From positions 120,001 through 152,000 of the forward strand of contig OZ245819.1 of NCBI GenBank assembly GCA_965228485.1: DNA of 32,000 nt, given 5' to 3'. The DNA comes from Candidatus Saccharimonadota bacterium. Its GTDB lineage: Bacteria > Patescibacteriota > Gracilibacteria > UBA4473. The notes under the pieces are model-generated. The model was given only the letters and a program-made list of their open reading frames with translations, did not search any database and was not told the origin of the DNA. The first letter of the stretch is position 1, and each line of letters starts with the position of its first letter. This document shows, one piece after another, positions 2,072 through 20,335 of this stretch. A program made the translations under genes and the position numbers.

Positions 2072-2072
2072 A

Positions 2073-4583: not shown

Positions 4584-4599
4584 AAAAATACTTTAGATC

Positions 4600-4608
4600 T
4601 GTTATAAT
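4600..4608 (+). promoter_or_regulatory. Extended -10 promoter element TGTTATAAT
   Basis: TGnTATAAT match. The last T lies 8 nt upstream of ATG 4617, implying a leaderless or near-leaderless mRNA. Confidence 0.45.
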
Positions 4609-4616
4609 ACTCTGAA

Positions 4617-6104: not shown

Positions 6105-6419
6105 ATGACTCATTCAAAACGATTTACGCATAAAAATGATGGTTTTATCTGTGAGAACTGTGGGACAGAGGTGCCTCCAGCGCAGGGAACTTGTCGAAAT
6201 CATTGTACGAATTGTCTGTATTCAAAGCATGTTGATATAAATCCTGGAGACAGGGCTGCTAACTGTGGAGGGAAAATGAGACCTGTTCGTTTGGAACTCA
6301 AATCAGGATTGCCTTTTAAAATTATTCATGTTTGTGAAAAATGTGGATTTGAACGTCCAAACAAGGTAGCCGATGACGATAGCCGAGAGTCATTGTTTAC
6401 TCTCAATTCAGTGTTTTAG
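6105..6419 (+). CDS. RNHCP-domain zinc-ribbon-like protein
   Basis: The signature is CENCGTEVPP...CRNHCTNCLYSKHVD...NCGG...VCEKCG, i.e. four CxxC-type pairs plus an RNHC(P/T) motif. The 3' end overlaps the convergent gene by 4 nt. Confidence 0.6.
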   Translation: MTHSKRFTHKNDGFICENCGTEVPPAQGTCRNHCTNCLYSKHVDINPGDRAANCGGKMRPVRLELKSGLPFKIIHVCEKCGFERPNKVADDDSRESLFTLNSVF

Positions 6420-8350
6420 CGAGCCACAGAAACAAAGGCTTCTCCATTGGCACCACCGAACTCTTGTATGGCTTGGGCGAAAGTAACGGCATGTTCTTTG
6501 GGAATTCCCCAGCATCCCCAGGTAGTCCCATTTGATCCGTGCATTAAGATAGCTCTTCCAGCGGTATTGGTATTACCTGCTGCTGGATCAATGTTTCCTC
6601 CTTGTTCATAACTTGTTTTATAGCTTTGAGTCATTGGTTCCATTCCATGAACAGTGGCTCGTGCAGCATAACGATGGTTTGGAAGAAATGCTACGTCGCC
6701 TGGTTGAAAATAAAATGAACCTAGAGGGCTTCCATGACTCTTTGGAACGTTACTAATTCCACCACTTCCCCCGTGGCATTTTGTTTGAATGCTCCCTTTT
6801 CCAGGAATATAAATTAGGGCTCGTTGGGTTCCCAGATCATTGGCGAAAAAAGGACGATCGGCTGAAAAAGGTTTTCCTTGCTTATGAGCATTGATGGCAT
6901 GACGCATAACAGGGAGTGACCACCCTTCATCCCAACCTTCAGTAATTTTTTCAACAGCATCTTTATAGTTTTGAGGAAGGGCCTCATATTGAGCTTTCAT
7001 TTCTTCCCCATAAAACTCAGAATTTAGATTAATGGATCCAGGATGACCTTCAATGTTTCTCATACTTCCAGGAGAATGAGTATTTCCTCTTGGATTTGCC
7101 ACAGATAAAGGATTACCACTACTGTCGGTAGCTTTGCTGCCTGGTTTACCAAGGTTTGCAATATCTTTGAAGAGTTTAAAAAGGTCTAAAAGACTGAACT
7201 CACCATTTTGTCCTGGCGCCCCTCCCATCAAATTTAGAGCTTCGGCTTGCCCTTGAGGGGTAGTCGTGTCTATATTTGGATTGCTTTTGGCGACTTCGCC
7301 TAGTTTTTCTTTTAATTTTTTTGCTAGAGCCTCAGCATTTTTTAGGTATTCTTCTTTATTGTAAGCGAGGGGATTTCGGCTGTTGTCTAGACCAAACCCT
7401 TCGTAATTAATAGCTATGGCACGATAAAGAATTTGAGGATCTATATTGTTGGCTTTTGCAATTTCTTCAAGTGCTTTTTGAAGTGTTTTTTCTGTGCTTT
7501 CGGTTGCACGTTCGCCTGTTTCTAGATCGATTTCATTTAGTTCGTTTATTTTTAGGAATGTTGCGTATTCCTCTATAAGTTTTCGAGTTTTGGTTTCAAT
7601 GTCTTTGTCTGATAGATCCTTTGTTTCCAACATGTGGATAACATATCGACCAATATCATTTTTAAATTCCTCAGGAATAAAGATACTTGTTTCACCAGCT
7701 TTAGTTTCCTGGCTTTCTTTCTGCCTCTTTGCCCAAATCTCATCAAATTTCTCTTGGGTCAGTGGCACTTCTACAGAACTAGGTTCTTTCCCTTCTGTTC
7801 CTTCAACAATAGATTTTAGTGTTTTGTGGTAGGTGATTTCATCGGTAATCATTCTAGAAACCTCTGTTTGGATTTCTTCGTCTGATAATCCTTTGGTTTC
7901 TAAATTAGCGATTATTGAACTGGCAATAGTGTCTTTTAATTCTCCTGGAATATTGAGATTAACCGGAGGATTTTTTTCTATTTCAGCCCAAATTTCATCA
8001 AACTTATCTCTTTCTAATGGTTGTTCAATATTTCTTCCTTCAGTGGCGGCTTCGATGATTTTATCACTTAACCCAGCCAAATCATTTATGTCTGATAGTT
8101 TTCTTCCATCCAGTGCTTTTTCAATTAGAGGGCAAATATCAGTATAATCTTGTAATGTATTAGCACACCGAGCAGCTTCAGCCTGAATGAGTGCATCAGA
8201 AATTTGAGTACCTTTTTCGATATATTTTTTTATTTCTTCAGCATAGGTTCTTTCTCGTGTATCGGTTGCGGGGCTTTTATCCTCTGGTCCTGTTTCTTGG
8301 TAAACAAAACGAGATATTGAATTTTGAGGATATAAAAATAATTTTTTCAT
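6416..8350 (-). CDS. Leader-motif effector-like protein E4 (644 aa): acidic modular N-terminal part plus a C-terminal YkuD/L,D-transpeptidase-like domain
   Basis: The N-terminus MKKLFLYPQNSISRFVYQETGPED fits the shared motif. There is an internal ~73-aa duplication (7541-7765 and 7802-8020). The C-terminus has ILMHGSNGTTWGCWGIP, which resembles the YkuD signature HG(T/S)N...GC with a shortened loop (Cys codon at 6512-6514). Confidence 0.6.
   Translation of the reverse strand: MKKLFLYPQNSISRFVYQETGPEDKSPATDTRERTYAEEIKKYIEKGTQISDALIQAEAARCANTLQDYTDICPLIEKALDGRKLSDINDLAGLSDKIIEAATEGRNIEQPLERDKFDEIWAEIEKNPPVNLNIPGELKDTIASSIIANLETKGLSDEEIQTEVSRMITDEITYHKTLKSIVEGTEGKEPSSVEVPLTQEKFDEIWAKRQKESQETKAGETSIFIPEEFKNDIGRYVIHMLETKDLSDKDIETKTRKLIEEYATFLKINELNEIDLETGERATESTEKTLQKALEEIAKANNIDPQILYRAIAINYEGFGLDNSRNPLAYNKEEYLKNAEALAKKLKEKLGEVAKSNPNIDTTTPQGQAEALNLMGGAPGQNGEFSLLDLFKLFKDIANLGKPGSKATDSSGNPLSVANPRGNTHSPGSMRNIEGHPGSINLNSEFYGEEMKAQYEALPQNYKDAVEKITEGWDEGWSLPVMRHAINAHKQGKPFSADRPFFANDLGTQRALIYIPGKGSIQTKCHGGSGGISNVPKSHGSPLGSFYFQPGDVAFLPNHRYAARATVHGMEPMTQSYKTSYEQGGNIDPAAGNTNTAGRAILMHGSNGTTWGCWGIPKEHAVTFAQAIQEFGGANGEAFVSVAR
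7541..8020 (-). repeat. Intragenic duplication of a ~73-aa 'F(D/K)EIW...IPEE...LETKxLSD' module (two copies)
   Basis: Copy 1 is PLERDKFDEIWAEIEKNPPVNLNIPGELKDTIASSIIANLETKGLSDEEIQTEV. Copy 2 is PLTQEKFDEIWAKRQKESQ...IFIPEEFKNDIGRYVIHMLETKDLSDKDIETKT. A third copy lies in the neighbouring protein (10769-10987). Confidence 0.75.
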
Positions 8351-8353
8351 TTC

Positions 8354-9799
8354 TTAGCTTGGTGGGTGGTGTGCTCGAATTACTTTTTTACTATTTCCAG
8401 CACCATTAGCCGTCATTGTGTAAGTTTCTATTCGGGGAGGTTTTCCATTTCCTGGATAACTTGCCACTCTGGCCACACCATTACTTGGTTGTGAAAGTAG
8501 AATTGCACTGTGTGTTTTTCCTTGATTACACTGACCATTTCGACAATGATCAATCATGATATGAGAACCAGGTGGAAGTTTGTCGACTTCTTCGGGTCCT
8601 GCACCACCATTTGAACCAATTCCTGTTCCTGAACTAATTCGATTCACACGATAATTAATGGCTTTTGGGAGGGAGTGAATTTTGGAGCCATCGGTAGTCC
8701 CTTCTCCAAAAAAGACTTTTTCTACCCAGTGAGTACAGTGTCGAGCCCCCTTAACTCCGGCTCGTCCTTGCTGAACCCAGTTTAAAGCTCTATTAACGAC
8801 CGATGAATTTGTTTCGATACCTTCGATATTGTCGTTCAAAATTTGCTCTCCCGTATAATTTCGTCCACTAGTTGTCGTTGTATCACCTTGGGTACTACTT
8901 CCAAATAACTCTTTTAGTAATTTTTGAAGCGCTTCAAGAAGCGTTGTTAATAGGTCTTTGCCTTGTTCTGGGGTCGTCGTTGTAGCGTTTGGTTGTGTAA
9001 CTGCATTGCTAAGGTCTCGGGTCTCTGTTGGTGTTGGAGTAATAAGATTTTGAGGGTTCAAATCTCTTAATACTGGGTTATCTTTTATGTTTGTTTCAAA
9101 CTGTTTAACAAAGTCCTGAATTTTTTCGGGTGTAAGACTTTTAATATCATCAATACTAAGATTTTGAGCTAATGCTGTTGTTAATGCTTTTGGAGTGATT
9201 TTTAGTCTTCCGGTATCTAGTGATTCTGCAGCTGTGTTAATCGTGTCTCCGTGTGCTTCGGTAATAAGATTTTCTTTGTAGCCTTGGATTTCATCCTTTT
9301 CGTAATTATCTAAGTACTCAGTAATAGCTTTTTGTGCTTCCTCTTTTGAAGCGTACATCGCTTGATTATTCCATTCGAGATCTTCGATAATTTTTTCATG
9401 GGTTAATGTTTGCGATGGCTCTAATGGTGGTTCTAGTTTTGAAAAATTTTCATTGATCGTTTGAATTTTTTTATCAATATCACTTTTTTCTGCTTCTAGA
9501 TATTCTCTGTTTTTAGTAACAATTCTTTGTTTTAAAATTTCCCGAATTCGATTTTTTTGATCGGTTAATTCGGTGTTTTCCGTATCTTCTTCTAGAGTAG
9601 CTCTAATAATCCTGTGGGTTTCTTCTTCTCCTCTTTGATCAACTAAAGCTTGTATTTTGGCTTTAATTTCTTCGTCGGTGAGTTGTTCTTTTAGAAGCTC
9701 TGCTGCAGCACTTATTTCAGGCTCTTTTTCACCTTCTGGTCCACTATTGAAATAGAAGGTTTTTATCTCTAACTCTGATGTGTGTTTTAAATATTTCAT
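8354..9799 (-). CDS. Leader-motif effector-like protein E3 (481 aa) with a C-terminal CHAP/NlpC-P60-like cysteine peptidase/amidase domain
   Basis: The N-terminus is MKYLKHTSELEIKTFYFNSGPEGE. The C-terminus has GARHCTHWVEKVF (compare the CHAP QCTWxV Cys block), then PPGSHIMIDH and GKTHSAILL (His block). The domain spans about 8357-8857. Confidence 0.55.
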   Translation of the reverse strand: MKYLKHTSELEIKTFYFNSGPEGEKEPEISAAAELLKEQLTDEEIKAKIQALVDQRGEEETHRIIRATLEEDTENTELTDQKNRIREILKQRIVTKNREYLEAEKSDIDKKIQTINENFSKLEPPLEPSQTLTHEKIIEDLEWNNQAMYASKEEAQKAITEYLDNYEKDEIQGYKENLITEAHGDTINTAAESLDTGRLKITPKALTTALAQNLSIDDIKSLTPEKIQDFVKQFETNIKDNPVLRDLNPQNLITPTPTETRDLSNAVTQPNATTTTPEQGKDLLTTLLEALQKLLKELFGSSTQGDTTTTSGRNYTGEQILNDNIEGIETNSSVVNRALNWVQQGRAGVKGARHCTHWVEKVFFGEGTTDGSKIHSLPKAINYRVNRISSGTGIGSNGGAGPEEVDKLPPGSHIMIDHCRNGQCNQGKTHSAILLSQPSNGVARVASYPGNGKPPRIETYTMTANGAGNSKKVIRAHHPPS

Positions 9800-9802
9800 T
9801 TT

Positions 9803-11236
9803 TTATCCAATTCTACGAATCCCAATGAGGTTTTGACGACTCGATTTAACAGAGACTCTATTACTTTGATTTCCACCAACAATAATAGGTTTCCTGTTTC
9901 TATCCCAGCCAACAAATACTCCAACATGACCTCCGCTCCCTCGAGAGAAGATACAAAGATCTCCTGGTTGAGCATCACCTGGAGAGATGGCGGTTCCATG
10001 ATTTAAAAATTCTCTAGAAGAAGCCGTTTTTGGGCCATCAATTCCTGCTTTTTGCAATACCCAGCTGATAAATGAGGCGCACCAGGGAGTGCCTGGTCCA
10101 GCGTTAAGTCCTGCACATGCATGCATTTCTCGAATAAGTCCAGCGTTACCACTTTCACTTACTCCAATTGCCTCTAATGCTTTTGCTAGAATTGCTTTAT
10201 TTGTTCCCGTTGCTTGATCTAGAGCTTGTTGAGCAAAGGCTGGAGTGGCTTCTCCATTTCCATTAGGAAGTTCACCACTGATTTCATCACCAGAAACTCG
10301 GTCATTGTTAGAAAAACTGTATTTTTTACCCGTTGCAAATTCAAGAATAATTCGGATCAGATCCCAAAGAGTATTAATTTCTCCATTATTACTTTCTACT
10401 CGAGAAGGATCGACCGTCCCATCTCGTAAAACCTGAGCCGCTTGTGCGGGAGTTGGGTTGTCTCCGAGTTTTCCAAGATTTTCTCGCAGGGCACTTAAAT
10501 TTTGAATATTAAATTTTCGAAGTCTTTCGAGTGTGGCTTCATATCTTTTTTCCAATCCCTCTAGATCGTTTCCACCCTGTTCGTGTTTGAATCCGAGGCC
10601 AAGAGCATTACTCGCTCTTAAATAGGCAAGTAACTCTGGATCGATGTCGTCTTTTGCATCATTTGGATCTCCTTGGGCTAAGTGATCGATGTAATCACCC
10701 TCGGTTAGAAATCCTCCTGGGAAAGTGTATTGAGGTGTTCCATCAGGATTTTTTGGCACGGGATTGTCTAGTGCTAACATTTTAAAGAAGAGGGCTTCTT
10801 TTTCGATTGCTTCGGTAACTTTATTTTTTAGTGTATCTCCACTTGATCCTTTAGCTTCAAAGGTGTGTTGAACATAATCCCAAACCTGATCGTAAAGATC
10901 CTCAGGAATGTACATTCCGTTGAATCCTTCTTTCTTTTGAGCTTCAAGTCGTTCATTCCAAATCTCTTTGAAAGTTCCTTCTTCCAATGCTTGTTCTAAG
11001 ACAATTTCTTTTTTTTCTGCGTATTCTTTTCCCGTCATAACTTTGAACTCTGAATTCAAAATTTCTGCGTTAGTTTCTTCTCTTTCGGCATTAGTATCAG
11101 CTATTCTTTCAGCTTTTTCAGCCTCTATTGAAGCGGCAAGATCGGCATCTATATCTGTAGGTCTTGTTTCATTTCCACCACTTTGGTAGTAAAATGTTGT
11201 AATTTCTCGTACTTGATTTTTGTTTAAGTATTTCAT
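9803..11236 (-). CDS. Leader-motif effector-like protein E2 (477 aa) with a C-terminal TIGR02594-family (NlpC/P60-like) peptidoglycan hydrolase domain
   Basis: The N-terminus is MKYLNKNQVREITTFYYQSGGNE. The C-terminus is TPWCASFISWVLQKAGI...FLNHG...PGDLCIFSRGSGGHVGVFVG...IIVGGNQSNRVSV. This matches the family pattern PWCAaFV...GD...GHVGf...GGNQsn.V as I remember it. The Cys codon is at 10079-10081. Confidence 0.75.
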   Translation of the reverse strand: MKYLNKNQVREITTFYYQSGGNETRPTDIDADLAASIEAEKAERIADTNAEREETNAEILNSEFKVMTGKEYAEKKEIVLEQALEEGTFKEIWNERLEAQKKEGFNGMYIPEDLYDQVWDYVQHTFEAKGSSGDTLKNKVTEAIEKEALFFKMLALDNPVPKNPDGTPQYTFPGGFLTEGDYIDHLAQGDPNDAKDDIDPELLAYLRASNALGLGFKHEQGGNDLEGLEKRYEATLERLRKFNIQNLSALRENLGKLGDNPTPAQAAQVLRDGTVDPSRVESNNGEINTLWDLIRIILEFATGKKYSFSNNDRVSGDEISGELPNGNGEATPAFAQQALDQATGTNKAILAKALEAIGVSESGNAGLIREMHACAGLNAGPGTPWCASFISWVLQKAGIDGPKTASSREFLNHGTAISPGDAQPGDLCIFSRGSGGHVGVFVGWDRNRKPIIVGGNQSNRVSVKSSRQNLIGIRRIG

Positions 11237-11244
11237 GTTTTTAG

Positions 11245-12249
11245 TTAGGTAACTGATGAGTCTGAGGCTTCTCTCTTAGTAACGATAAGAGATCCATCTG
11301 GAGCTTCTCCTTGTTTTGGAGTTTTATCTCCATTAGCGGCGGCTTCAGCCGTGTTCCATTCAAAAGTTGATGGCATAGATTTGTAACAAACTTTATTTCC
11401 TTGATTACCACCAAGACATTGGCCTCCAACCTTGATACAAATGTGACCGAGACCACTTCCCCCAATACATTCTTGAGCTAGAGAAGCATCACCAATATCG
11501 TGTCCAGCTTGTTTACAAACGTAATTTACAAAATCTCGACACCAAGGTTGATCAGCTCCTCCTGGAGTATATTTGGCATTTCCTTCGGCATCACTATTGG
11601 CCTGACCAAGCTCTGCTTGTGCGGCTTGTACAACAGCTTCATTGTCCCCGCCAAGACCACTAAAGTCAGAGTTTTCCCAATCAATTCCGTTGGAGCCAAT
11701 TTGTTGTCCCAGTTGTTTTATAATGCGAGATTTTCCATCAATCGAATTTGCCATTTTTTCTCCTTCAGGATCACCATTAGTTTCTTCTCGAACTTTAGCC
11801 GCTTCTTCAGCATAGGTTTTAGCGACTTGTTCCAGATAACTTCTTAGTTGTGTTTCAATTTCTTGTCGTTGTGCTTCTATTGTTTCTTGAGTTACGTCAC
11901 TGTCTTTTGCTGCTCGAGCAGTATCAACTTGTTCTCCTTCAGCATCGTTTAGTGTGTCTTCAATACTTTTTTCTAATTGCGATCGATTCAAGACTTCTTT
12001 TCCAGCCGTTTGATTAATAAGATCACCAATTTGACCATGTGCCAAATTTTGCACAGCCGGAGGAACGGGGATTCCATCAATTTTAGTTTGAATATCACTG
12101 TTTCTTTGTTTGATCCAATCCGGGGTGATAACCGTCTTATCTTGACTAGGAGTGCTTCTCTCTGCGTCTTCAGGTCCTTTTGGTCCTTCTGCACTTAGAT
12201 ATAAGAATTTACTGTTAATATCGATAGCCTGTAGATTTAATTGTTTCAT
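11245..12249 (-). CDS. Leader-motif effector-like protein E1 (334 aa) with a diverged TIGR02594-like domain
   Basis: The N-terminus is MKQLNLQAIDINSKFLYLSAEGPKGPED. The C-terminal region is QPWCRDFVNYVCKQAGHDI...LGHICIKVGGQCLGGNQGNKVCY (about 11350-11637). Confidence 0.6.
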   Translation of the reverse strand: MKQLNLQAIDINSKFLYLSAEGPKGPEDAERSTPSQDKTVITPDWIKQRNSDIQTKIDGIPVPPAVQNLAHGQIGDLINQTAGKEVLNRSQLEKSIEDTLNDAEGEQVDTARAAKDSDVTQETIEAQRQEIETQLRSYLEQVAKTYAEEAAKVREETNGDPEGEKMANSIDGKSRIIKQLGQQIGSNGIDWENSDFSGLGGDNEAVVQAAQAELGQANSDAEGNAKYTPGGADQPWCRDFVNYVCKQAGHDIGDASLAQECIGGSGLGHICIKVGGQCLGGNQGNKVCYKSMPSTFEWNTAEAAANGDKTPKQGEAPDGSLIVTKREASDSSVT

Positions 12250-12254
12250 ATTTT

Positions 12255-12578
12255 TTATGAGAGTTGATTTAAGTCTGATTGGAGTGTTTCATCAGCTTTT
12301 TTATGTTCTACTTCTTCTTGTCGTTGAAATTCTTCTTCCATAGACATAAGAATGATGTGTTCCATTTTATGAAAAAAGTATGGTTCTTTTTTTAGTATTT
12401 CATTAAGAGCGTCTGTTTGAGCCTTGTCAGCTTCGATGAGGGTTTCATGAATGGTTATAAGCTGATCTTCTCTTAGTGTTGGTAACTTGGTTACTACCTT
12501 GGTTCGAATTTCTTGGCTTAAAACAAGGTTTCGTTTAACCAGCTTCAAGATATCATCTTTGATTTGCTCAATAGTCAT
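12255..12578 (-). CDS. Small helical 'P-family' protein P1 (107 aa), first gene of the minus-strand effector operon
   Basis: RNLVLSQEIRTKVV...EADKAQTDALNEILKKEPYFF aligns with RNLFLSKAVKEQIL...EEMDEKQTLLFRKVLEKNPHFF of the divergent paralog. The gap to the next gene is 5 nt. Confidence 0.7.
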   Translation of the reverse strand: MTIEQIKDDILKLVKRNLVLSQEIRTKVVTKLPTLREDQLITIHETLIEADKAQTDALNEILKKEPYFFHKMEHIILMSMEEEFQRQEEVEHKKADETLQSDLNQLS

Positions 12579-12584
12579 CAGTTC

Positions 12585-12593
12585 ATTGTACCA
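12585..12593 (-). promoter_or_regulatory. Extended -10 element TGGTACAAT (minus strand) for the P1-E1-E2-E3-E4 operon
   Basis: The reverse complement of 12585-12593 reads TGGTACAAT. Only 6 nt separate it from ATG 12578, implying a leaderless transcript. Confidence 0.45.
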
Positions 12594-12649
12594 TAAAATG
12601 AACTAAAAATAAAGTCTTGAGTTCGGGGTTTGTAATTGATGTTGTTTTC

Positions 12650-12658
12650 TGGTATAAT
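12650..12658 (+). promoter_or_regulatory. Extended -10 element TGGTATAAT for the plus-strand P2/Q1 unit
   Basis: TGnTATAAT match, 10 nt upstream of ATG 12669. It lies inside the tracked TTG-12636 ORF extension, which argues for the 12669 start. Confidence 0.45.
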
Positions 12659-12668
12659 GTCGCGACAA

Positions 12669-12983
12669 ATGAGTGAAAATCTTGAAGTTATCAAAGTTTT
12701 GTTAGGAAGAAATCTTTTTCTTTCTAAGGCTGTTAAAGAACAGATTTTAGCGTCTGATGAGAATTCTCAGACAGAAATTCTACCTATTTTGGAAGAAATG
12801 GATGAGAAACAGACTTTGCTGTTTAGAAAGGTTTTAGAAAAAAACCCTCACTTTTTTGGAGATTTGGAAAATATGGCCATTCACGAAGCTTTGCGAAAAT
12901 TAGTTCAGCAAGAAGAGGCCCTCCATTTAGAGGAGATTGAAATGGCTGAAAACGAATTAGATGATCTTATTTCAAAACTCTAG
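12669..12983 (+). CDS. Small helical 'P-family' protein P2 (104 aa from ATG 12669)
   Basis: Paralog of P1 (NPHFF/EPYFF block and M-D-x-K-Q-T core). The start was moved from the tracked 12636 because the promoter element sits at 12650-12658. It ends ENELDDLISKL, followed by the junction TAG-GCG-ATG. Confidence 0.7.
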   Translation: MSENLEVIKVLLGRNLFLSKAVKEQILASDENSQTEILPILEEMDEKQTLLFRKVLEKNPHFFGDLENMAIHEALRKLVQQEEALHLEEIEMAENELDDLISKL

Positions 12984-12986
12984 GCG

Positions 12987-13232
12987 ATGAAACGAGATGA
13001 GAACTGGTTCAAGATACATTTAAAAGCTTATGCGGCTCTTTCGCAAAAGCAGATTGATGAAATTTTTTCAGGAAATACGGCTTTATCTCGTAGTTTTGAA
13101 GTATTTTTAGGCAGAGTTTTTCCTGATTTTTTGAAAGATTTTATTGGTTATGAGAAGCATATCTTAAAGATTTTGAAAAAGTCTCAAAGACGTCGTAAAA
13201 TACAGGCTTTTCGTAAGAGTCTTTTTGGTTAA
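12987..13232 (+). CDS. Small 'Q-family' protein Q1 (81 aa)
   Basis: Clear paralog of 15775-15963: NWFKIHLKAYAALSQKQIDEIFSGNTALSRSFEVFLGRVFPDFLKDFIGYEK versus NWFSLQWQTYTELSKSELEKIFSTKRVLSSSFKVFLEQAYPDFLKDFLQYEK. Confidence 0.7.
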   Translation: MKRDENWFKIHLKAYAALSQKQIDEIFSGNTALSRSFEVFLGRVFPDFLKDFIGYEKHILKILKKSQRRRKIQAFRKSLFG

Positions 13233-13258
13233 ACAAGATTGTTTTTTTGTGGTATTTA

Positions 13259-13267
13259 TGTTACAAT
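13259..13267 (+). promoter_or_regulatory. Extended -10-like element TGTTACAAT
   Basis: TGnTAnAAT match, 23 nt upstream of ATG 13291. The elements at 15530 and 16982 have the same 23-nt spacing. Confidence 0.4.
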
Positions 13268-13290
13268 GGCGAGATTAATCATCATTTTTA

Positions 13291-15300
13291 ATGAAACACC
13301 TAAAACAGTTTTCGAATACTATTCCTTCTCGGTATTGTTTTCGTCTACCGACAGGAGGAGAAGTGGGAAGGGATGTAGAAAATTCTTTTGATTCTTCGCG
13401 AATGCTTATGATAGGGGATTCCAACACGATTCGTATGGGGACACATTTGCCAGGAGTCAAACTTGATGCGGAAGAAGGTCGTTCTATTAGTGCGATGCCT
13501 GCAGCTCTTAATAGAGCTCTTCAGCAAAGACCTAAGCCAGAGGTCGTGACTATTTTGGGAGGAACGAACGATGCTGGTAATTTAGCTACAATTCGGACTG
13601 CTTACACTCAAATGATAGAGACGGCTAGGGCTAATGGTGTGAAACTGGTTATTGGTACACTCCCACCATTAGAAGGACATAATGTCGAAGAAGCGAATAA
13701 ATTTATTCGTAGCTTAGCGGGAGCAGATGTTCGAGTGGTTGAACTTGGACAATACGCTATGGCGGGAGATGGAGTGCACTTCACTATGAGAGGGGGAGCG
13801 AAAGAGGCGGCGAATGCGATGCGGATTGGGGCTCAAGAATCGGTTGAGCCTGTTAAAGCTGAAGATTTAGCCGCTATCTTATCTCGAAATGCAGAAAAAC
13901 CAGAGAGTGAAGAAGTTAAAAACGCTATTAAGGAAACATCTAAATTACTTTCAGAAAAAGGAATTAGGCCAAAGGTGCTTCAGGCATATTTTGAAAAGCA
14001 TCCAGAAAAATTAGATGCCGAGTCGATTAAGGCTTTAGCGACGATTTTGGCCGATCAACAAAAAATTGCAGAGCTTCTTGGAAATACGACCGCAACAACA
14101 CTGTCAGCCGAAGAACAGACAGAGCTTAAAACACTAACACCAGATCAATTACTCAGAAAAGATGAGAATGAAAGGCTAAGATTTGTAACTCAGGGGGGTA
14201 TTTCAGCAGAAAAACTTGCCTCTGGAGAATCAAAAGAAATTACATTTAATTTTGATGAAGCTGGGAATAAAGAACTTTACTTAAAGACCACAGCAGGTCA
14301 GGTTTTGCCTCCTAATGTGCGTCAAGTAGTGGCCTCTGGTTCTAAGCAAGATGGAAGTACAATTTTTACTCGAAGAGGGTATAATGGAGAATTCTTTTCT
14401 CCTTCTGGGGCGCGTTTAAAAATTCACAATGGAACAACTATTAAAGTTGTTGAAGGGGAAGAAGGGTTTGTTGCCAATAATAAATTAGAGGAATTTAAAT
14501 CTACTTTTACTAAAGATGTAAAAGCTGTTTTGGAAGAAGCGGGTATCAAAGAAGATTCGGAAGGATATGAAAGATTGTCTCGAGCCACTGAAATGGCCGC
14601 ACTTAAAGGCGTTGATCTTCGTATTGCTTTGGCTTTGGCCAAAAGTGATACCTTTAAAGGCGTAAGTGATGAAGACTTTCCAGCTAAGTTCGAAGAAGTA
14701 CTTACCCAAGCTCATCGTTTACAGAATGGAATGTCTGAAACCCAAATCATGAAAGATGGGAAGCTGAATTTGAATCTTGCTCAACAATGGTTGAGTCGAT
14801 ATATCACTGATCGAGATCAGCTGAAAAGCTTGCTTTCAGAGCTTAAAGGGTCTGACGGAGAGACGTACTATACAGAAGAAGATCTTAGAGCTTTGGAAAA
14901 TATTGAAGTTGCTGCTGGAAAAAAATTGTCAGGAGAGCAGGCTTATGCATTGGCTGCAAAATATTTTCCAACTGAACCAGTCGATAAAGTTGTAGCGATT
15001 ATGATCGGGGAGAGTGGGCTTGATCCTCGTGCGGGTAATAACTACCAAGCAGGGCATACTGGTCTGATGCAGATTAGTGGACTTCATCGTGATGGTTTGA
15101 TTAAAGATGGGATTATTGACCCTAATCGTGATTACCGAGAACAGCTTTATGATCCTGAAACAAATATGGCAGCAGCTAGATGGGTCTTTAATAAACAGGG
15201 ATGGGGAGCTTGGGAAGCTGGTCCGAATCATAAGCCTGGTTACTATGCTCAGAATCTGGCAAGAGCTCAGGCAATGAAGCCTTCGACAGCGGTCGCTTAA
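13291..15300 (+). CDS. Leader-motif protein (669 aa): N-terminal SGNH/GDSL hydrolase, long linker, then a C-terminal SLT-type lytic transglycosylase (GH23-like)
   Basis: The N-terminus MKHLKQFSNTIPSRYCF fits the motif spacing. The SGNH blocks are LMIGDSNT (I), LGGTNDA (III) and GDGVHFT (V), within about 13399-13830. The SLT blocks are VAIMIGESGLDPRA (Glu codon at 15010-12), GHTGLMQIS and AAARWVF, within about 14923-15240. Confidence 0.8.
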   Translation: MKHLKQFSNTIPSRYCFRLPTGGEVGRDVENSFDSSRMLMIGDSNTIRMGTHLPGVKLDAEEGRSISAMPAALNRALQQRPKPEVVTILGGTNDAGNLATIRTAYTQMIETARANGVKLVIGTLPPLEGHNVEEANKFIRSLAGADVRVVELGQYAMAGDGVHFTMRGGAKEAANAMRIGAQESVEPVKAEDLAAILSRNAEKPESEEVKNAIKETSKLLSEKGIRPKVLQAYFEKHPEKLDAESIKALATILADQQKIAELLGNTTATTLSAEEQTELKTLTPDQLLRKDENERLRFVTQGGISAEKLASGESKEITFNFDEAGNKELYLKTTAGQVLPPNVRQVVASGSKQDGSTIFTRRGYNGEFFSPSGARLKIHNGTTIKVVEGEEGFVANNKLEEFKSTFTKDVKAVLEEAGIKEDSEGYERLSRATEMAALKGVDLRIALALAKSDTFKGVSDEDFPAKFEEVLTQAHRLQNGMSETQIMKDGKLNLNLAQQWLSRYITDRDQLKSLLSELKGSDGETYYTEEDLRALENIEVAAGKKLSGEQAYALAAKYFPTEPVDKVVAIMIGESGLDPRAGNNYQAGHTGLMQISGLHRDGLIKDGIIDPNRDYREQLYDPETNMAAARWVFNKQGWGAWEAGPNHKPGYYAQNLARAQAMKPSTAVA

Positions 15301-15479
15301 GAGTCAAAAGAGGGGCTCTGAGTGATTATGGGCTTTCTCAATTAGAAGCGGATAAACAAGCCGGTAGAGTGCCACAAACGATCGGTTGGTCTTTTGGCGC
15401 TAATGATATTATGTCCGGAAATTCAGGAGCCGCCCTTACAAATGCAGAAGCGGCGAAAGCTTTAGGGCTTCAGGCCTAA
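15300..15479 (+). pseudogene. Remnant of an SGNH-hydrolase paralog (3' part of a 16071-16931-like gene with a 72-codon internal deletion and no start codon)
   Basis: It translates as RVKRGALSDYGLSQLEADKQAGRVPQTIGWSFGANDIMSGNSGAALTNAEAAKALGLQA*. The intact gene reads RVKRGAQSSYGLAQLEADKQAGRVPKTIGWSFGANDIMSGNSGAALTNAEAA[72 aa]KALGLQA*. Block I (GDS) and block V (DGVH) are missing. No in-frame ATG, GTG or TTG occurs before 15369. Confidence 0.8.
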
Positions 15480-15726
15480 TTTTACAGCTCGTTTGATGTC
15501 TTAAAACCCTTTTAAAAAAGATTGTTTTGTGATATAACAATCCGATTCATTTAATAAAAGTATGAAACTAAAACTTAATGATTTCGCTATCGAGAAGACT
15601 CGTTTTATTTTCAAGACTCCGGATGAGATTTATGGAGCGGCTCCAGAAAGAGATATTTCTAATGATCCAGAGGCACTCGTTAAGCAGTATAAGGAACTGT
15701 TTCAATCAGAGTCTCCAGAAGAAATT
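15301..15726 (+). repeat. Segmental duplication, copy 1 (SGNH 3' remnant, intergenic promoter, and effector leader)
   Basis: Colinear with 16537-16690 plus 16907-17178. I counted 18 mismatches by hand in the first 154 nt, and the remainder looks similarly conserved by eye. Confidence 0.85.
15530..15538 (+). promoter_or_regulatory. Extended -10-like element TGATATAAC (duplicate of the 16982 element)
   Basis: TGnTATAAc, 23 nt upstream of ATG 15562. It lies inside the duplicated segment. Confidence 0.4.
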
Positions 15727-15771
15727 AAAACCGCCGAAAAAGAACAGGATGATTTAATTGCTAAAATGTAG
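15562..15771 (+). CDS. Chimeric mini-ORF (69 aa): the effector leader region fused to a P-family C-terminal tail
   Basis: Residues 1-55 (MKLKLNDFAIEKTRFIFKTPDEIYGAAPERDISNDPEALVKQYKELFQSESPEEI) match the N-terminus of the 969-aa protein, with 7 differences. The tail KTAEKEQDDLIAKM resembles the P2 tail MAENELDDLISKL. The same TAG-GCG-ATG junction leads into a Q gene. Confidence 0.6.
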   Translation: MKLKLNDFAIEKTRFIFKTPDEIYGAAPERDISNDPEALVKQYKELFQSESPEEIKTAEKEQDDLIAKM

Positions 15772-15774
15772 GCG

Positions 15775-15963
15775 ATGCCAACTAAAAAAAATTGGTTTAG
15801 TTTACAGTGGCAGACCTATACAGAATTGAGTAAGTCTGAACTAGAGAAAATCTTTTCTACTAAAAGAGTACTTTCGAGTAGTTTTAAGGTTTTTTTGGAG
15901 CAAGCTTATCCAGATTTTTTGAAAGACTTTCTTCAATATGAAAAAAAAATCGAAGAATCTTAA
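15775..15963 (+). CDS. Small 'Q-family' protein Q2 (62 aa)
   Basis: Paralog of Q1 (see 12987-13232), with the same 3-nt spacing after the preceding stop. Confidence 0.65.
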   Translation: MPTKKNWFSLQWQTYTELSKSELEKIFSTKRVLSSSFKVFLEQAYPDFLKDFLQYEKKIEES

Positions 15964-16070: not shown

Positions 16071-16931
16071 ATGAGTTTGGGTCCCGAAGCAGGAAACAGA
16101 GTCGATATAAGAGAGGGGAGAGAAGTGCCTGGGGTTATTCCGACAAAAGCCATCACCACGGCTTTGACGAAGGTTGTTCAGTCTGGAAAAGAGAAAGAGG
16201 TTGTCGCAGCTGTTCGCCAAAATGTGCCAGAAGCCGCCGGTGATATTAAAAATTTAGAGGCAACCCTCGGCGATTTAATGAAAAAATTGAGAGAGTTTAT
16301 TTCAAACTTTTTTTCTGGAGCCAAAACAACGGATACGGCTGATACAAATGGAACAAATCCGCCGCCAAACACTCCAAATACTCCAGGTACTCCAAATACT
16401 TCAGGTGCTGATCCGGCACGAGAGCCAACCGCCGCTGAGAGAGAAGCGGCGGCAGAAGCTTTAAGGTCTCTTGGCCCTATAGAAAGTGTTTATGGGGATT
16501 CTCATGCAGAAGGATTAACAGGCGGTACATCGGCAAGAGTCAAAAGGGGGGCGCAGAGTTCTTATGGACTCGCACAACTAGAAGCGGATAAGCAAGCCGG
16601 TAGAGTTCCAAAAACGATTGGTTGGTCTTTTGGAGCTAACGATATTATGTCCGGAAATTCAGGAGCCGCGCTTACCAATGCAGAAGCGGCTATAAAAATT
16701 GCGGAAACGGCCGGATCGAAGTTTACCTTGATTGCGGTTCCTCCGATGTCAAAAAATGGGAAACAGGGCGAAGTAGATGCTCTTAACGCCCAATATAAAG
16801 CTTTGGCAGCTAGATATCCACATGTGACTTTCGTTAATCCGTATATCGGAATGAGGAATAGATCTGACGGGGTTCATTTAGCTATGAGTGACTATGCAGC
16901 AGCGGCGAAAGCTTTAGGGCTTCAGGCCTAA
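16071..16931 (+). CDS. SGNH/GDSL-family hydrolase (286 aa) with the family amphipathic helix and a Pro/Asn/Thr-rich linker, but without the N-terminal leader motif
   Basis: The SGNH blocks are VYGDSHAEG (I), WSFGANDI (III) and SDGVHLA (V). The helix is LGDLMKKLREFISNFFSG (16266-16319), followed by TNGTNPPPNTPNTPGTPNTSG. Confidence 0.75.
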   Translation: MSLGPEAGNRVDIREGREVPGVIPTKAITTALTKVVQSGKEKEVVAAVRQNVPEAAGDIKNLEATLGDLMKKLREFISNFFSGAKTTDTADTNGTNPPPNTPNTPGTPNTSGADPAREPTAAEREAAAEALRSLGPIESVYGDSHAEGLTGGTSARVKRGAQSSYGLAQLEADKQAGRVPKTIGWSFGANDIMSGNSGAALTNAEAAIKIAETAGSKFTLIAVPPMSKNGKQGEVDALNAQYKALAARYPHVTFVNPYIGMRNRSDGVHLAMSDYAAAAKALGLQA

Positions 16932-17178
16932 TTTTATCGGCAGTTTGATCACTTAAAATCCTTTTAAAAAAGGTTGTTTTGTGATATAATGATCTGATTT
17001 ATTTAACAAAAATATGAAACTAAAACTTAATCAGTTCGCTATCGAGAAGGCTCGTTTTATTTTTAAGACTCCCGATGAGATTGATGGAGCCGGTCCAGCA
17101 AGAGATATTTCTAATGATCCAGAGGCACTCGTTAAGCAGTATAAGGAATCGCTTCAATCAGAGTCTCCAGAAGAAATT
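16537..17178 (+). repeat. Segmental duplication, copy 2 (intact version; 16691-16906 is absent from copy 1)
   Basis: See copy 1. The 216-nt segment missing from copy 1 is bounded by the near-identical direct repeats GCAGAAGCGGC (16680-16690) and GCAGCAGCGGC (16896-16906). Confidence 0.85.
16982..16990 (+). promoter_or_regulatory. Extended -10 element TGATATAAT
   Basis: Perfect TGnTATAAT, 23 nt upstream of ATG 17014. Confidence 0.45.
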
Positions 17179-19923
17179 GCTGCGGCGACAAAAGCCATTG
17201 ATAAGTATATTGAAAGTAAAGCTTCTGCGCTGGTAGAAAAAGGGGGGGCTCCACTAGTAAGAGCCGAAATCAGAAAAGCCGCAGACCCATCACTTGATGA
17301 AGTTATTGATAAGGTGGAAGCTCGATATGAAGCTTCGGATGGCGGAATCCTCAACGTGACAGAGCTAAAGTCGATGATCACAATTTATTCAACGGCTGAA
17401 GAACGAAGTCTTCTAGAAGCACGAGCAAAAGAAATTTTAGATGAAGATGATCTAAAATCCTTTAATGAACATTTGGCAGCGATTGATGCAAAGTTAGCAG
17501 AAACTTCTTATGAAGCCAATCGAGATAGTTTTGAAAGAACTCATACAAGAGAAGATGATAGACCGGTTTATGAAAGAGTTAATCCAAATACCTTAGCCTC
17601 AAGTGCCGCTATTTTAGGGAAAAGCTACAACCGTCCTGGAGGGAGAGGTGAAGCTAAATACTTTTCTGATGCGGATCATAATGCCGTGGTAGATGAAGAT
17701 ATGGGAGCCATTCATCGGTCAGTGACGAAAGAAATGCTTGATGGATTTCTAGAAGAAAACTCGACTATCAAAGATAAACTTAATAACGGAAAGGTTGATA
17801 TATCAAGACTTTCTGATGAAGAGCTAACCGCTTATGCCAGATTTTACGGAAAAGTTTTAAGTGAGTCTAAGATTGAAGGAAATGCGGTTGATGGTTTGTT
17901 ACTTCCGACAGAGATTACCCGACCTGGGGGGCTCATTGAGGGACAAGCTCGAGGGATGGCAACGAGTAATGAGGATTTGGCTCGAAGATCAAATCTTTTC
18001 ATTAAAGCGCTTAGAGAAGGTGGATATACCGGATCTATCACGATGAAGCACTGGCCTGGTTATACCGGGGTGGGGAACTCGGATGAAGAAATGGTTTACG
18101 GAAAGGTTGACCAGGGGACACTAGAAGCTCTGAAAGGGGTCGAAGGGGCTAATTCAATCATGGTTTCAAGTCTTCATCTAGAAGATTTTGGAAGTAATGT
18201 GGGAAAAGACAGAGCCGATATGCTTCCTGTTTTTGCAGATCCTGAAGCGATTGCGAAACTTCGAGAGGGGCATGAAAACATGAAAGTCATGACCGATGAC
18301 CTTTCGGCTTATGTCAATGCTCGAGTGGCTCAAGGAGATACTCGTGATCGTTCAGAGATTGTAAAAGAAACAGCCTTGAAAACTTTAAAAGCTGGTGTTG
18401 ATCAGGTTATGTTTGCCGATCCCAAAGATCAAAGAACAGCTGAAAGTGTTGTAAAATCTTATATGGAAGATCTTCAAGCAAGAGCAAAAGAAGGGGATGA
18501 AGCCGCTAGAACCGAATATGAAGCGCGAGTAAAAAGAATGGAAGCGGCAAGAGGAACTGCTGGAGAGGAATTATCACCCGAAGCTAAGGCCTGGGTCGAT
18601 GATGTTGTTGCTCGTGAAACAGCGGCGAAAGCGGAAGGCCGATCCTTAGAAGGTTTCGGTGCTTCAGAAGTAGCGGAAGCGGATGTTCCAAAAGAATGGA
18701 CCGACAGTGAAGCCACAGTAGCGGACAAAGAAGCTATTACAAAACTAGCGGAAGGTTTAGATGCAGAAACTCAAGCAGAAATCAAAAAATTACTAGAGGA
18801 AGGAGGAGAAGCAAATCTTGCTAAAGCTCGTGAGTTAGCGCTAGTCAAACAGGGAGAGAAATTACTTTCTGGTAAAAGCGGTACGGAAGTTTTGGATATT
18901 GTTGAGCAAAACCCAGACGCGGCGTTTAATCATTTCTTCCAAGCGGAAGAAGGAAAAGAAAATACCTGGAAAGTTGATTTCAAAGGGGTAGATGAGCGTC
19001 TGCTTGGAGCGGGTCACTTTGAAAAGAACCTAATGGCTAAGTTCCAATACGTTAAAATTTTCAACCCTAAAACAGGGGAGACTAATATTGGTGTTCGGGG
19101 TGTTAAGCCAGGAAGTGAAAAACCCGGTTATTTTGACATTCATACTGGGAAATACCTTCCAATCTGGACGGGGAGTGTGATTAAAGGTCTAACCGCTAAA
19201 GATATTAGTGAGATGGATATTAAGACTCAGAATGCCATGCGGGGTGAACACGGAAAACCAATGAGCATTAAAGATTATTTAGCTCAGGCTAAAGAAAAAC
19301 GGAAATCTTATCGTACCTCTGTTGAAAATGGAACGGCTCAGCATCAAATTGGGGGAGAAAACCCTTTAAATGCGAAATTAAGTAAGGAGGCAGGACGAGA
19401 GGTTGTTCCAGAAAAACAAGCAAAACTTCGGAATGCAGTTGGGACACTTATGAGAGATAAGTCTCGTTATAAGGCTGTTGCTCAGAAACATAATGTCCCA
19501 TGGGAGCTTCTAGCGGCTATCCAGTACCGAGAAGCGAGCGGGAATCTAAATAAATATTTCCTAAATGGTCAGACCGTTGGAACAACAACGACGATTGTTC
19601 CAAAAGGTTTGAGATTTGATACTTGGGAAGCTTCGGCTGAACACGCTATCGTAAATAGAGACCATTATGGTTTTAAATCTTTAGGAACGGATCCATCTCC
19701 TCATGCGGTTGCAAACCTGACCGAGCGATATAATGGGATGGGATACAGCAAAAGAGGGCTTGTAAGCCCTTATGTATGGGCTGGACATCCTTCTTATGAG
19801 AACCAAGGTGGTATGTTCGTTTCAGACGGAAACTTTGATCGAAATGCTAAAGATGGACGGCTGGGAGTTATGCCAATTTATATGGAACTCAGACGCCAAC
19901 AAGGTAAGGAAGCGACCTCCTAA
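17014..19923 (+). CDS. Leader-motif protein (969 aa) with a C-terminal COG5526-type lysozyme-family domain and a possible central GH3/NagZ-like region
   Basis: The N-terminus is MKLKLNQFAIEKARFIFKTPDE. The C-terminus (about 19420-19900) is PWELLAAIQYREASGN...VPKGLRFDTWEASAEHAI...ERYNGMGYSKRGLVSPYVWAGHPSYENQGGMFVSDGNFDRNAKDGRLGV. This matches my recollection of the COG5526 pattern (PW..iAaiH.RE / E.yNG.GY / SPYLW.g...Y.kGkyv.DG.fd). Central MKHWPGYTGVGNSDE...MVSSLH...VMTDDLSA (about 17881-18333) weakly recalls GH3 KHFPGHG...DSH...SDDL.M. Confidence 0.65.
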   Translation: MKLKLNQFAIEKARFIFKTPDEIDGAGPARDISNDPEALVKQYKESLQSESPEEIAAATKAIDKYIESKASALVEKGGAPLVRAEIRKAADPSLDEVIDKVEARYEASDGGILNVTELKSMITIYSTAEERSLLEARAKEILDEDDLKSFNEHLAAIDAKLAETSYEANRDSFERTHTREDDRPVYERVNPNTLASSAAILGKSYNRPGGRGEAKYFSDADHNAVVDEDMGAIHRSVTKEMLDGFLEENSTIKDKLNNGKVDISRLSDEELTAYARFYGKVLSESKIEGNAVDGLLLPTEITRPGGLIEGQARGMATSNEDLARRSNLFIKALREGGYTGSITMKHWPGYTGVGNSDEEMVYGKVDQGTLEALKGVEGANSIMVSSLHLEDFGSNVGKDRADMLPVFADPEAIAKLREGHENMKVMTDDLSAYVNARVAQGDTRDRSEIVKETALKTLKAGVDQVMFADPKDQRTAESVVKSYMEDLQARAKEGDEAARTEYEARVKRMEAARGTAGEELSPEAKAWVDDVVARETAAKAEGRSLEGFGASEVAEADVPKEWTDSEATVADKEAITKLAEGLDAETQAEIKKLLEEGGEANLAKARELALVKQGEKLLSGKSGTEVLDIVEQNPDAAFNHFFQAEEGKENTWKVDFKGVDERLLGAGHFEKNLMAKFQYVKIFNPKTGETNIGVRGVKPGSEKPGYFDIHTGKYLPIWTGSVIKGLTAKDISEMDIKTQNAMRGEHGKPMSIKDYLAQAKEKRKSYRTSVENGTAQHQIGGENPLNAKLSKEAGREVVPEKQAKLRNAVGTLMRDKSRYKAVAQKHNVPWELLAAIQYREASGNLNKYFLNGQTVGTTTTIVPKGLRFDTWEASAEHAIVNRDHYGFKSLGTDPSPHAVANLTERYNGMGYSKRGLVSPYVWAGHPSYENQGGMFVSDGNFDRNAKDGRLGVMPIYMELRRQQGKEATS

Positions 19924-19987
19924 GAGGCATACTTTAGCTTTTTATATAAATACAATAAACAAAGGATATTGTAACCTAAAAAACTTT

Positions 19988-20012
19988 AAAATCCCCTTGC
20001 CAAGGGGATTTT
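19988..20012 (+). terminator. Rho-independent terminator after the 969-aa gene
   Basis: AAAATCCCCTT-GCC-AAGGGGATTTT forms a perfect 11-bp stem and runs into a T-tract. Confidence 0.7.
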
Positions 20013-20059
20013 CTTAATACTACAATTCGAGACGCAATATTTATTAACCCACATCTATC

Positions 20060-20335
20060 ATGTCAAAAGGTGATTTGATTACAGCAATTGCAAACCGAGC
20101 TGGTTTGACTAAGAAAGCTGCTGGAGACGCTCTTCAAGCTTTCATCGACACAGTTACTGGTGAACTTACTAATGGTGAACAAGTAACTATTACAGGTTTC
20201 GGAACTTTTAAAGTTTCTAAACGAGCGGCTAGAACTGGAGTTAATCCACAAAACCCGTCTCAAAAAATTAAAATCCCTGCTTCTAAAGTTCCAACTTTCA
20301 AAGCTGGTAAAAATCTTAAAGACGCAGTTAACTAG
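20060..20335 (+). CDS. hup: HU-family nucleoid-associated DNA-binding protein
   Basis: 91 aa. GDLITAIANRAGLTKKAAGDALQAFIDTV...ITGFGTFKVSKRAARTGVNPQNPSQKIKIPASKVPTFKAGKNLKDAVN is a canonical HU/IHF fold sequence. Confidence 0.95.
   Translation: MSKGDLITAIANRAGLTKKAAGDALQAFIDTVTGELTNGEQVTITGFGTFKVSKRAARTGVNPQNPSQKIKIPASKVPTFKAGKNLKDAVN

Follow-up and report, generated by a model that had tools for sequence, protein, structure and literature searches.

Small acidic helical proteins encoded ahead of leader-bearing wall hydrolases in Gracilibacteria: a candidate escort family

Introduction

How episymbiotic members of the Candidate Phyla Radiation (CPR), or Patescibacteria, attack or remodel the envelopes of their hosts is largely obscure. 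Envelope attack by these organisms has mostly been attributed to type IV pili, type IV secretion systems and generic "secreted" hydrolases (PMC8080830, PMC12102498). A locus that bears on this question lies in a 32,000-nucleotide stretch of contig OZ245819.1 (positions 120,001 to 152,000), here called the window, from a bacterium of the Gracilibacteria lineage. In it, two small genes, P1 (12255-12578, minus strand) and P2 (12669-12983, plus strand), stand back to back at the heads of two sets of genes that include predicted cell-wall hydrolases, and a third small gene, Q1 (12987-13232, plus strand), directly follows P2. What do these small proteins do for the enzymes encoded behind them?

A sequence-only reading of the window had placed two families of small helical proteins, P and Q, at the head of each effector unit and proposed that they are adaptors, chaperones or immunity proteins. 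Here, we followed up this proposal by homology and profile searches, structure prediction and comparison of gene neighborhoods. P genes are nearly always followed by a gene for a protein with a short fixed N-terminal leader. We tentatively favor, at somewhat less than an even chance, the view that P is an escort (a chaperone or targeting factor) for these leader-bearing wall hydrolases.

Results and Discussion

P genes precede leader-bearing proteins

The two divergent gene sets of the window are located between housekeeping genes, with a WecG/TagA-type transferase and an RNHCP protein on the left flank and HU, PheS, RpoD and GreA on the right one. P1 (107 aa, helical, isoelectric point (pI) 5.1) heads a minus-strand operon of four further genes, for proteins of 334 (11245-12249), 477 (9803-11236), 481 (8354-9799) and 644 aa (6416-8350, the last gene). 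The successive gaps are 5, 8, 3 and 3 nt, and this tight spacing bears out, for P1, the earlier claim that P is the first cistron of the minus-strand effector operon. On the plus strand, P2 (104 aa, helical, pI 4.6) heads a unit in which P2 and Q1 are followed by three large genes, for proteins of 669 (13291-15300), 286 (16071-16931) and 969 aa (17014-19923), and by a rearranged segment.

Every large protein of the locus except the 286-aa SGNH-type protein bears the leader. This element of ~25 residues consists of M-K-x-L, a fixed nine-residue spacer and (K/R)-F-(I/L/V)-(F/Y), usually followed by ..G-P-E. Leader N-termini are found at 12249, 11236, 9799 and 8350 on the minus strand and at 13291, 17014 and 15562 on the plus strand; that of the 334-aa protein, whose gene is coupled to P1, reads MKQLNLQAIDINSKFLYLSAEGPKGPE, and that of the 669-aa protein MKHLKQFSNTIPSRYCFRLPTGGE. 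When ~250 kb of fetched loci were searched with a hidden Markov model (HMM) of the leader, no other open reading frame (ORF) scored below E 0.1.

The link between P and the leader was assessed in a census of 17 fetched loci, cited below by L numbers where they must be told apart. A P-family HMM identified 24 complete P genes in them, of which 23 could be evaluated for the next gene; the contig of the other, P0140, stops before it. The distance from the P stop to the next start codon is -4 to +18 nt in 22 of these 23 cases, and the protein encoded there is leader-bearing in 20 and Q in three. The order of P and then leader occurs both in syntenic relatives (L001, L003, L004, L013-L017 and L021) and in distant singletons located between other housekeeping genes (L006, L008, L009, L011, L012, L018 and L019). 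Distant P members sampled over the E-value range (P0066, P0076, P0090, P0105, P0120, P0163 and P0164) were all positive. For P, the outcome of the neighborhood census suggested along with the sequence-only reading is thus strongly positive. Behind P homologs come CHAP-like, GDSL/SLT, SLT, M15-like and further unrelated proteins, and the leader, not any catalytic domain, is the one feature that tracks P. This genomic link is unusually clean, and the leader on these Sec-independent wall hydrolases is novel.

The arrangement is also conserved. A syntenic locus with a P2 of 62% identity is present on a 1.33-Mb chromosome (OZ246423.1) of "Candidatus Altimarinota", i.e., the Gracilibacteria phylum, and L001, L003, L004 and L016/L017 all repeat the gene order WecG-RNHCP-[leader operon]-P1 <> P2-[leader gene]-HU-PheS-RpoD. 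P1 orthologs (L001, L003, L004 and L016) form their own clade, apart from P2 orthologs, so P1 and P2 have been kept with their own operons since before these genomes split. In L001, the closest complete relative, an extra gene for a 475-aa protein (8453-9880, minus strand) sits between P1 and P2 on the P1 strand, and P1 is therefore not the first cistron there. This protein is leaderless and has a basic N-terminus and a C-terminus in common with a 583-aa protein of L003.

Leader-bearing wall hydrolases

Several of the enzymes could be assigned to known hydrolase families. The 477-aa protein matches Pfam CHAP (3.5e-7) and NLPC_P60 (1.5e-6). Its catalytic region is shared by the 334-aa protein, which has a CHAP-like C-terminus and weak TIGR02594/RipC matches. 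The 669-aa protein contains SLT (7.9e-8) and Lipase_GDSL_2 (8.7e-8) domains. A PDB sequence search named no catalytic domain in the 644-, 481- and 969-aa proteins, nor was one recognized by Pfam in the 481-aa protein; the C-terminus of the 969-aa protein is common to a 745-aa protein of L004. Elsewhere, leader proteins carry SLT (L006) or Peptidase_M15_3 and N-acetylmuramidase (L004) domains, and a more distant genome (L020) encodes a leader-bearing Peptidase_M23 protein (11761-13368, minus strand) in the slot between RNHCP and HU. Beyond the leader, the seven enzymes of the window detectably share only a 75-residue module (477- and 644-aa proteins) and a catalytic domain (334- and 477-aa proteins). 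None of the seven has a Sec-type hydrophobic N-terminus, and no segment exceeds a Kyte-Doolittle hydropathy of 1.06; in the same window, true signals of the Sec and prepilin types have a normal appearance. On our reading, the leader proteins would be secreted.

The 75-residue module, FxEIW...IPE(E/D)L..., spans aa 80-154 of the 477-aa protein and aa 108-178 of the 644-aa protein (32% identity, E 2e-5) and is duplicated inside the latter. In many of the enzymes, a short amphipathic helix, L(W/G/F)(D/E)(L/M)(I/L)xx(L/I)(L/I)xx(F/L), occurs just ahead of the catalytic domain: at aa 290-301 of the 477-aa protein, in proteins of L001, L004, L009 and L017, and at aa 66 of the leaderless SGNH protein of L001. 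This motif may offer P or Q an alternative place to bind, or it may be active on membranes.

The presence of a small protein beside lytic enzymes raises the alternative that P is an immunity-like cytoplasmic inhibitor, or "safety catch", that would neutralize the hydrolases before export or protect the producer, with Q acting likewise on the SGNH esterase. Immunity proteins of peptidoglycan-hydrolase effectors, such as the Tsi/Tai-type proteins of type VI secretion systems, undergo export or carry a lipid anchor, and their specificity is for one catalytic domain. P resembles them as a small protein encoded beside a wall-degrading enzyme, and tight coupling of a small protein to a lytic enzyme is also typical of toxin-immunity pairs. 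However, P is constant across six catalytic domain types, staying homologous while the catalytic domains differ completely, and up to four different enzymes are found per P. Moreover, peptidoglycan lies outside the membrane, yet P and Q lack signal peptides, and immunity genes are usually downstream of the toxin, whereas P and Q are upstream. Domain-specific immunity is unlikely because one P accompanies several enzymes, has no export signal and is encoded upstream, and we regard inhibition as quite improbable. Thus, of the roles first proposed for P, that of adaptor or chaperone is the best supported, through the leader linkage, and immunity is disfavored.

The P family and its predicted fold

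P1 and P2 share 28% identity over 94 aa (BLASTP E 2e-8) as well as the motifs RNL(V/F)LS, (D)xxQT and (E/N)P(Y/H)FF, and the P-family HMM detects P1 at E 1.7e-28. Their assignment to one family, motifs included, was therefore correct, and by sequence they are true paralogs. A word-indexed search with P2 found six close homologs only; an exhaustive HMMER profile search recovered 101 P cluster representatives, 30 of them below 1e-10. Nearly all clusters encode proteins of 100-119 aa that match end to end, and the coding status of P is supported by these ~100 homolog clusters. A 301-nt Brevibacillus contig (L005) considered as a P locus was rejected as noise (HMM E 0.33).

The 83 aligned members have a median length of 107 aa and a median pI of 5.1. 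Their signature comprises I-x2-LL-x2-N-L-F-L near the N-terminus, D-x2-Q, K-N-P-x-F-F, and L-E-x-E-L near the C-terminus; P60 and E82, the latter in the last helix, are each 99% conserved. No membrane-type hydrophobic segment occurs in these members (maximal 19-residue hydropathy 1.25), and P1, P2, Q1 and Q2 have neither a hydrophobic segment nor a signal peptide (0.26-0.88). The AlphaFold2 model of P2 (mean predicted local distance difference test score, pLDDT, 90.8) has helices at residues 3-14, 20-28, 31-58 and 62-103, and the 28- and 42-residue helices meet at the invariant NPxFF turn.

Known families provided no annotation. Pfam, NCBIfam, PHROGs and PADLOC gave no match with P1, P2, Q1, Q2 or the "P3" protein discussed below (in Pfam, none at E<=1 for P and Q), and Pfam matches among the 83 P members were single-member noise only. 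A PDB profile search with P yielded nothing meaningful (best E 0.03, MDA5), and a Foldseek search of the P2 model against the PDB reached a best E of 1.4; therefore, no fold is assigned to P2. Neither P nor Q matched phage genomes in tblastn searches. The only names attached to P sequences are "hypothetical protein" from Candidatus Gracilibacteria MAGs and, as a source, Candidatus Altimarinota, and literature searches found no published description of the P family or the leader. The profile searches that had been suggested as a check on P thus uncovered a large new family and no hit to a housekeeping family: P1 and P2 represent a previously undescribed family of ~105-aa, acidic, all-helical proteins whose named members all come from Gracilibacteria.

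The sequence-only reading had likened P and Q to the Lap1/Lap2-type partners of LXG effectors in type VII secretion systems (T7SS). Lap1 (DUF3130/TIGR04197) and Lap2 (DUF3958) are targeting factors of T7SSb LXG toxins (PMC9600955; PMC10801868), and the size and fold class of the P2 model are those of known cytoplasmic targeting factors (PMC9600955). P is similarly small, cytoplasmic and all-helical, is encoded directly upstream of enzymes without a Sec signal in a monoderm-type bacterium, and has a hairpin of two long helices with a short conserved motif near the turn; two different small proteins, here P2 and Q, may likewise precede one effector. The differences are substantial. The element linked to P is a leader of ~25 residues, whereas Lap effectors have an LXG domain of ~200 residues; operons of more than one enzyme have a single P at their head; Q is basic and bears no relation to P; and no T7SS genes were seen in the window, nor is a T7SS reported for this phylum (PMC11217815). 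Pfam found no match to Lap1, Lap2 or WXG100 (PF06013) in the 83 P members (E<=0.01) and no LXG domain in the seven enzymes, and the NCBIfam library, including its TIGR models, gave no TIGR04197 match for P or Q. The likeness is accordingly one of analogy only.

A related alternative is that P itself is exported, as a WXG100-like hairpin that leaves the cell together with the leader proteins through a divergent T7SS-like machine or another ATPase-driven one, its turn motif and C-terminal tail forming a composite signal. WXG100 proteins (EsxA/EsxB) are also ~100-aa helix-turn-helix proteins with a conserved turn motif, and the two long helices of P joined at the invariant turn fit this description; in addition, the extreme C-terminus of P is conserved. 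In the nine closest P sequences, F63-x3-E67 is found just past the turn, and in this close P1/P2 clade it recalls the YxxxD/E and FxxxD export motifs, the latter conserved in the Lap1 family (PMC9600955). Yet E67 is not conserved across the 83 members, the turn of P is K-N-P-x-F-F rather than W-x-G, which is absent from P, and P has two extra N-terminal helices. Apart from the missing family-model matches, Foldseek found no WXG100 or Lap structure in the PDB even at E up to 10, and the window proteins scanned include no FtsK/EssC-like or WXG100 domain. Furthermore, reports of T7SS concern Bacillota and Actinomycetota only (PMC11217815). Co-secretion of P consequently seems a slim prospect.

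The remaining comparison is with the class I chaperones of type III secretion systems (T3SS) and the flagellar chaperones FliS, FliT and FlgN, in which P also finds partial counterparts. These proteins are small, acidic and cytoplasmic and are encoded beside their substrates. T3SS chaperones dock at the export gate, and they bind the N-terminal region of substrates whose N-terminal signal is not hydrophobic. P, too, is small, acidic (pI 4.6-5.1) and encoded beside a leader-bearing protein. By contrast, class I chaperones are alpha/beta dimers (CesT/SycE-type) and the P model is all-helical, with no sequence or Foldseek match between them; no T3SS or flagellar genes are evident; and the P-linked leader is a fixed sequence motif, unlike T3SS signals.

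P as a candidate escort

We favor an escort or targeting role because P tracks the leader, is tightly coupled in translation to the gene behind it, and is a cytoplasmic, acidic, helical protein. Under this model, translational coupling would keep the output of P roughly stoichiometric to that of the first leader protein in its operon, and P would bind the leader or the adjoining region of the enzyme in the cytoplasm. Bound P may keep the enzymes export-competent or inactive and then hand them over to a Sec-independent export route; the acidic C-terminal LExEL tail, conserved throughout the family, is a plausible docking element.

A more far-reaching version holds that P is the cytoplasmic recognition step of an unrecognized Sec-independent export pathway of Gracilibacteria, in which the leader serves as the fixed signal for a polymorphic arsenal of wall hydrolases, the LExEL tail docks, and Q acts in trans for the leaderless esterase. 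We consider this version unlikely as a whole, if far from negligible.

Several observations weigh against an escort role. First, the leader can occur apart from P: L020 contains two leader proteins and no P anywhere in the 20-kb locus, and in L001 a 1079-aa leader protein (19277-20315, plus strand) follows two type IV pilin genes, away from P. (Outside the leader, this protein has no homology to the 969-aa protein of the window.) Second, a single P gene heads multi-enzyme operons, and because one P heads operons of several enzymes, a 1:1 ratio of P to enzyme cannot hold for all. Third, none of the P loci has genes for export machinery beside it, and P has no sequence or fold similarity to any characterized chaperone or adaptor in Pfam, NCBIfam, the PDB or Foldseek searches. 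Finally, the census loci are phylogenetically clustered, representing about a dozen independent lineages rather than 17, all apparently Gracilibacteria.

If P is an escort, the combination of leader and P would be a signature for the secreted arsenal of Gracilibacteria in metagenomes, P pull-downs would offer a handle on the export machine, and a phylum with almost no genetics would have a testable model of effector targeting. If the export-pathway version is true, it would describe a route by which episymbionts or predators breach host cell walls. Should P instead inhibit or regulate, its family would still be a new part, and a tightly conserved one, of the wall-hydrolase loci.

The divergent control region

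P1 and P2 flank a 90-bp divergent control region (12579-12668). It contains an inverted repeat (12580-12590/12594-12604) with 11-nt arms that are 91% complementary, and a promoter-like site with a TG extension (12630-12658). Extended -10 boxes (TGnTAyAAT) lie ~6-10 nt from the start codons of both genes, and this proximity suggests near-leaderless P1 and P2 mRNAs (a term that refers here to the transcripts and not to the protein motif). The block AAAATAAAGTCTT is common to this region and the intergenic region of L021.

These features bring up the possibility that P is an expression device, either a small regulator (e.g., an anti-sigma-like protein or an RNA polymerase or mRNA factor) or an upstream ORF that drives coupled translation from such mRNAs. 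The position of P1 and P2 around a region with an inverted repeat and extended -10 boxes is consistent with this idea, as is the fact that P is always the first ORF, with the downstream start overlapping or abutting its stop. On the other hand, P is acidic, and no helix-turn-helix or other nucleic-acid-binding domain was found in it; an ORF that served for coupling alone would not retain residues conserved at 99% together with a confidently predicted fold over ~100 clusters; and what P is linked to is the leader motif, a feature of the proteins, in genes that are otherwise unrelated. That the P protein is so deeply conserved favors a function at the protein level over coupling or regulation, which we judge improbable.

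Q is a rare addition behind P2

Q1 (81 aa, basic, pI 10.3) is in frame with P2 and starts 3 nt behind it. Q2 (15775-15963, plus strand) is a 62-aa protein without the basic C-terminal tail. The two are 47% identical (E 3e-21) and share NWF, SxSF(E/K)VFL and (F/Y)PDFLKDF, which confirms that they constitute one family, as true paralogs. The identical P-Q junctions that had been noted are likewise present: both read TAG-GCG-ATG. P and Q are not related to each other (hhalign E 0.1), and the idea that Q is an effector fragment or a disguised leader was rejected, as tblastn and the leader HMM showed no similarity.

Four Q sequences are known, from three genomes: Q1, Q2, a copy in L021 with 57% identity to Q1, and, in L001, a diverged ortholog recognized by its position. 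No further Q genes were found in a 5.8-billion-protein index or in JGI metagenomes, and a PDB profile search with Q gave no match. L003, L004, L013-L017 and every singleton locus have no Q; in them, P2 directly abuts the leader protein. Hence, the idea that Q is a general partner of effector units does not hold, and Q is a rare, lineage-specific add-on of one subclade, always 2-3 nt behind a P2-type gene.

In three of the four cases (L001, L021 and the window at 16071-16931, downstream of Q2), Q precedes a leaderless SGNH-type protein of 280-286 aa; that of L001, with the same Q-SGNH order, has 280 aa and a weak Lipase_GDSL_2 match, and that of L021 begins with MSLGP... The exception is Q1, which now precedes the leader-bearing GDSL+SLT protein. 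We propose that Q is a rapidly evolving, basic accessory protein, which emerged in a single subclade immediately behind P2 and most likely links the leaderless SGNH hydrolase encoded downstream of it with the P pathway; such an adaptor role is the most plausible one. An inhibitor role is the main alternative, since Q is tied to a single enzyme type, SGNH, and evolves rapidly like many immunity genes: its non-synonymous rate (pN) is about twice that of P2.

Another explanation is that Q is an ORF of recent origin, under weak constraint and without an essential role, a by-product of rearrangements at the locus. The small number and patchy occurrence of Q genes fit this explanation, as do the loss of the basic tail in Q2 and a ratio of non-synonymous to synonymous changes (pN/pS) of 0.75 against the L001 copy. 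Among the closer copies, however, pN/pS is 0.32-0.40 with synonymous sites saturated, which supports coding status, and all four copies have, despite this saturation, preserved both their reading frame and the core FPDFL(K/E)(D/T)F. The place of Q directly behind P2 is also kept in every Q-bearing genome, and the chimeric rearrangement described below spared the upstream frame and the exact Q2 junction. We find it very improbable that Q is a by-product and retain the adaptor role as the working view.

A rearranged segment upstream of Q2

The segment at 15299-15726 (plus strand) is a remnant of a segmental duplication. In blastn comparisons, 15299-15454 is an 88% copy of 16535-16690 and 15442-15726 a 91% copy of 16894-17178; the copy comprises the 3' end of the 286-aa SGNH gene, the promoter region downstream of it and codons 1-54 of the 969-aa gene, and it lacks an internal part equivalent to 16691-16893. 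Where the two have an EEI codon triplet in common, it continues in frame into what is left of a lost P2-like gene, namely its last ~14 codons (15727-15771). The resulting 69-aa ORF (15562-15771, plus strand) has a tail that aligns to the tail of P2 and abuts Q2 at the junction given above; the P-family HMM does not detect it. This ORF is a chimera of leader and P tail produced by the duplication, not a P gene.

The earlier assignment of its tail to P was therefore right as regards the last ~14 codons and wrong in that these are a remnant within a chimera. Similarly, the claim that P-Q pairs precede the effector genes on this strand stands for one intact pair, P2-Q1, the second "P" being the remnant. 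The duplication is recent and has overwritten most of a second P2-like gene, and the chimeric ORF has its own copied promoter. As Q1 and Q2 are far more diverged than the 88-91% duplication, at least two rearrangement events of different age took place.

A separate family at 4617-5114

The 165-aa protein encoded at 4617-5114 (plus strand), "P3", had been listed as a third P member, which was not borne out by sequence comparisons, none of them significant. BLASTP aligned the acidic tail only (E 0.017); hhalign gave E 0.16 and a probability of 0.4% on the motif quoted for the family and, with a deeper P profile, E 0.005 and a probability of 7% in a different register; the P-family HMM gave E 2.6. 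P3 is without the RNLxLS and NPxFF motifs, and in its "QT" motif Q is invariant and T is not conserved. It belongs to a conserved family of its own, with 55 homologs at 46-81% identity and the motif SESMxDxERQYWFNL...KLRDIL..ER.KLAEIDAKY, in which SESMxDxERQYWF and KLRDIL..ER.KL are invariant.

P3 always follows one or two large proteins and is followed by WecG (window 11-5114; L004 49-3359; L020 7874-10414). The 836- and 787-aa proteins encoded upstream of it have hydrophobic, glycine-rich segments. In the distant genome L020, a 704-aa protein encoded 12 nt upstream of P3 has the leader motif MKNIFRSDSEMITSRFVWQQ, and the C-terminus of P3 is an acidic ILxELxxL tail like that of P. On account of this leader protein directly upstream and the P-like tail, a functional link of P3 to leader proteins is possible even without detectable homology to P.

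Other features of the window

No Rfam families and no tRNA were found in the window. The gene at 20389-21711 (minus strand), a neighbor of HU in all relatives, encodes a 440-aa protein and includes 3.8 copies of a 126-bp tandem repeat (91% matches) at 20926-21408. The repeat encodes PAENPFA-type proline/alanine-rich units, and the protein also has a C-terminal coiled coil and a lysine-rich tail.

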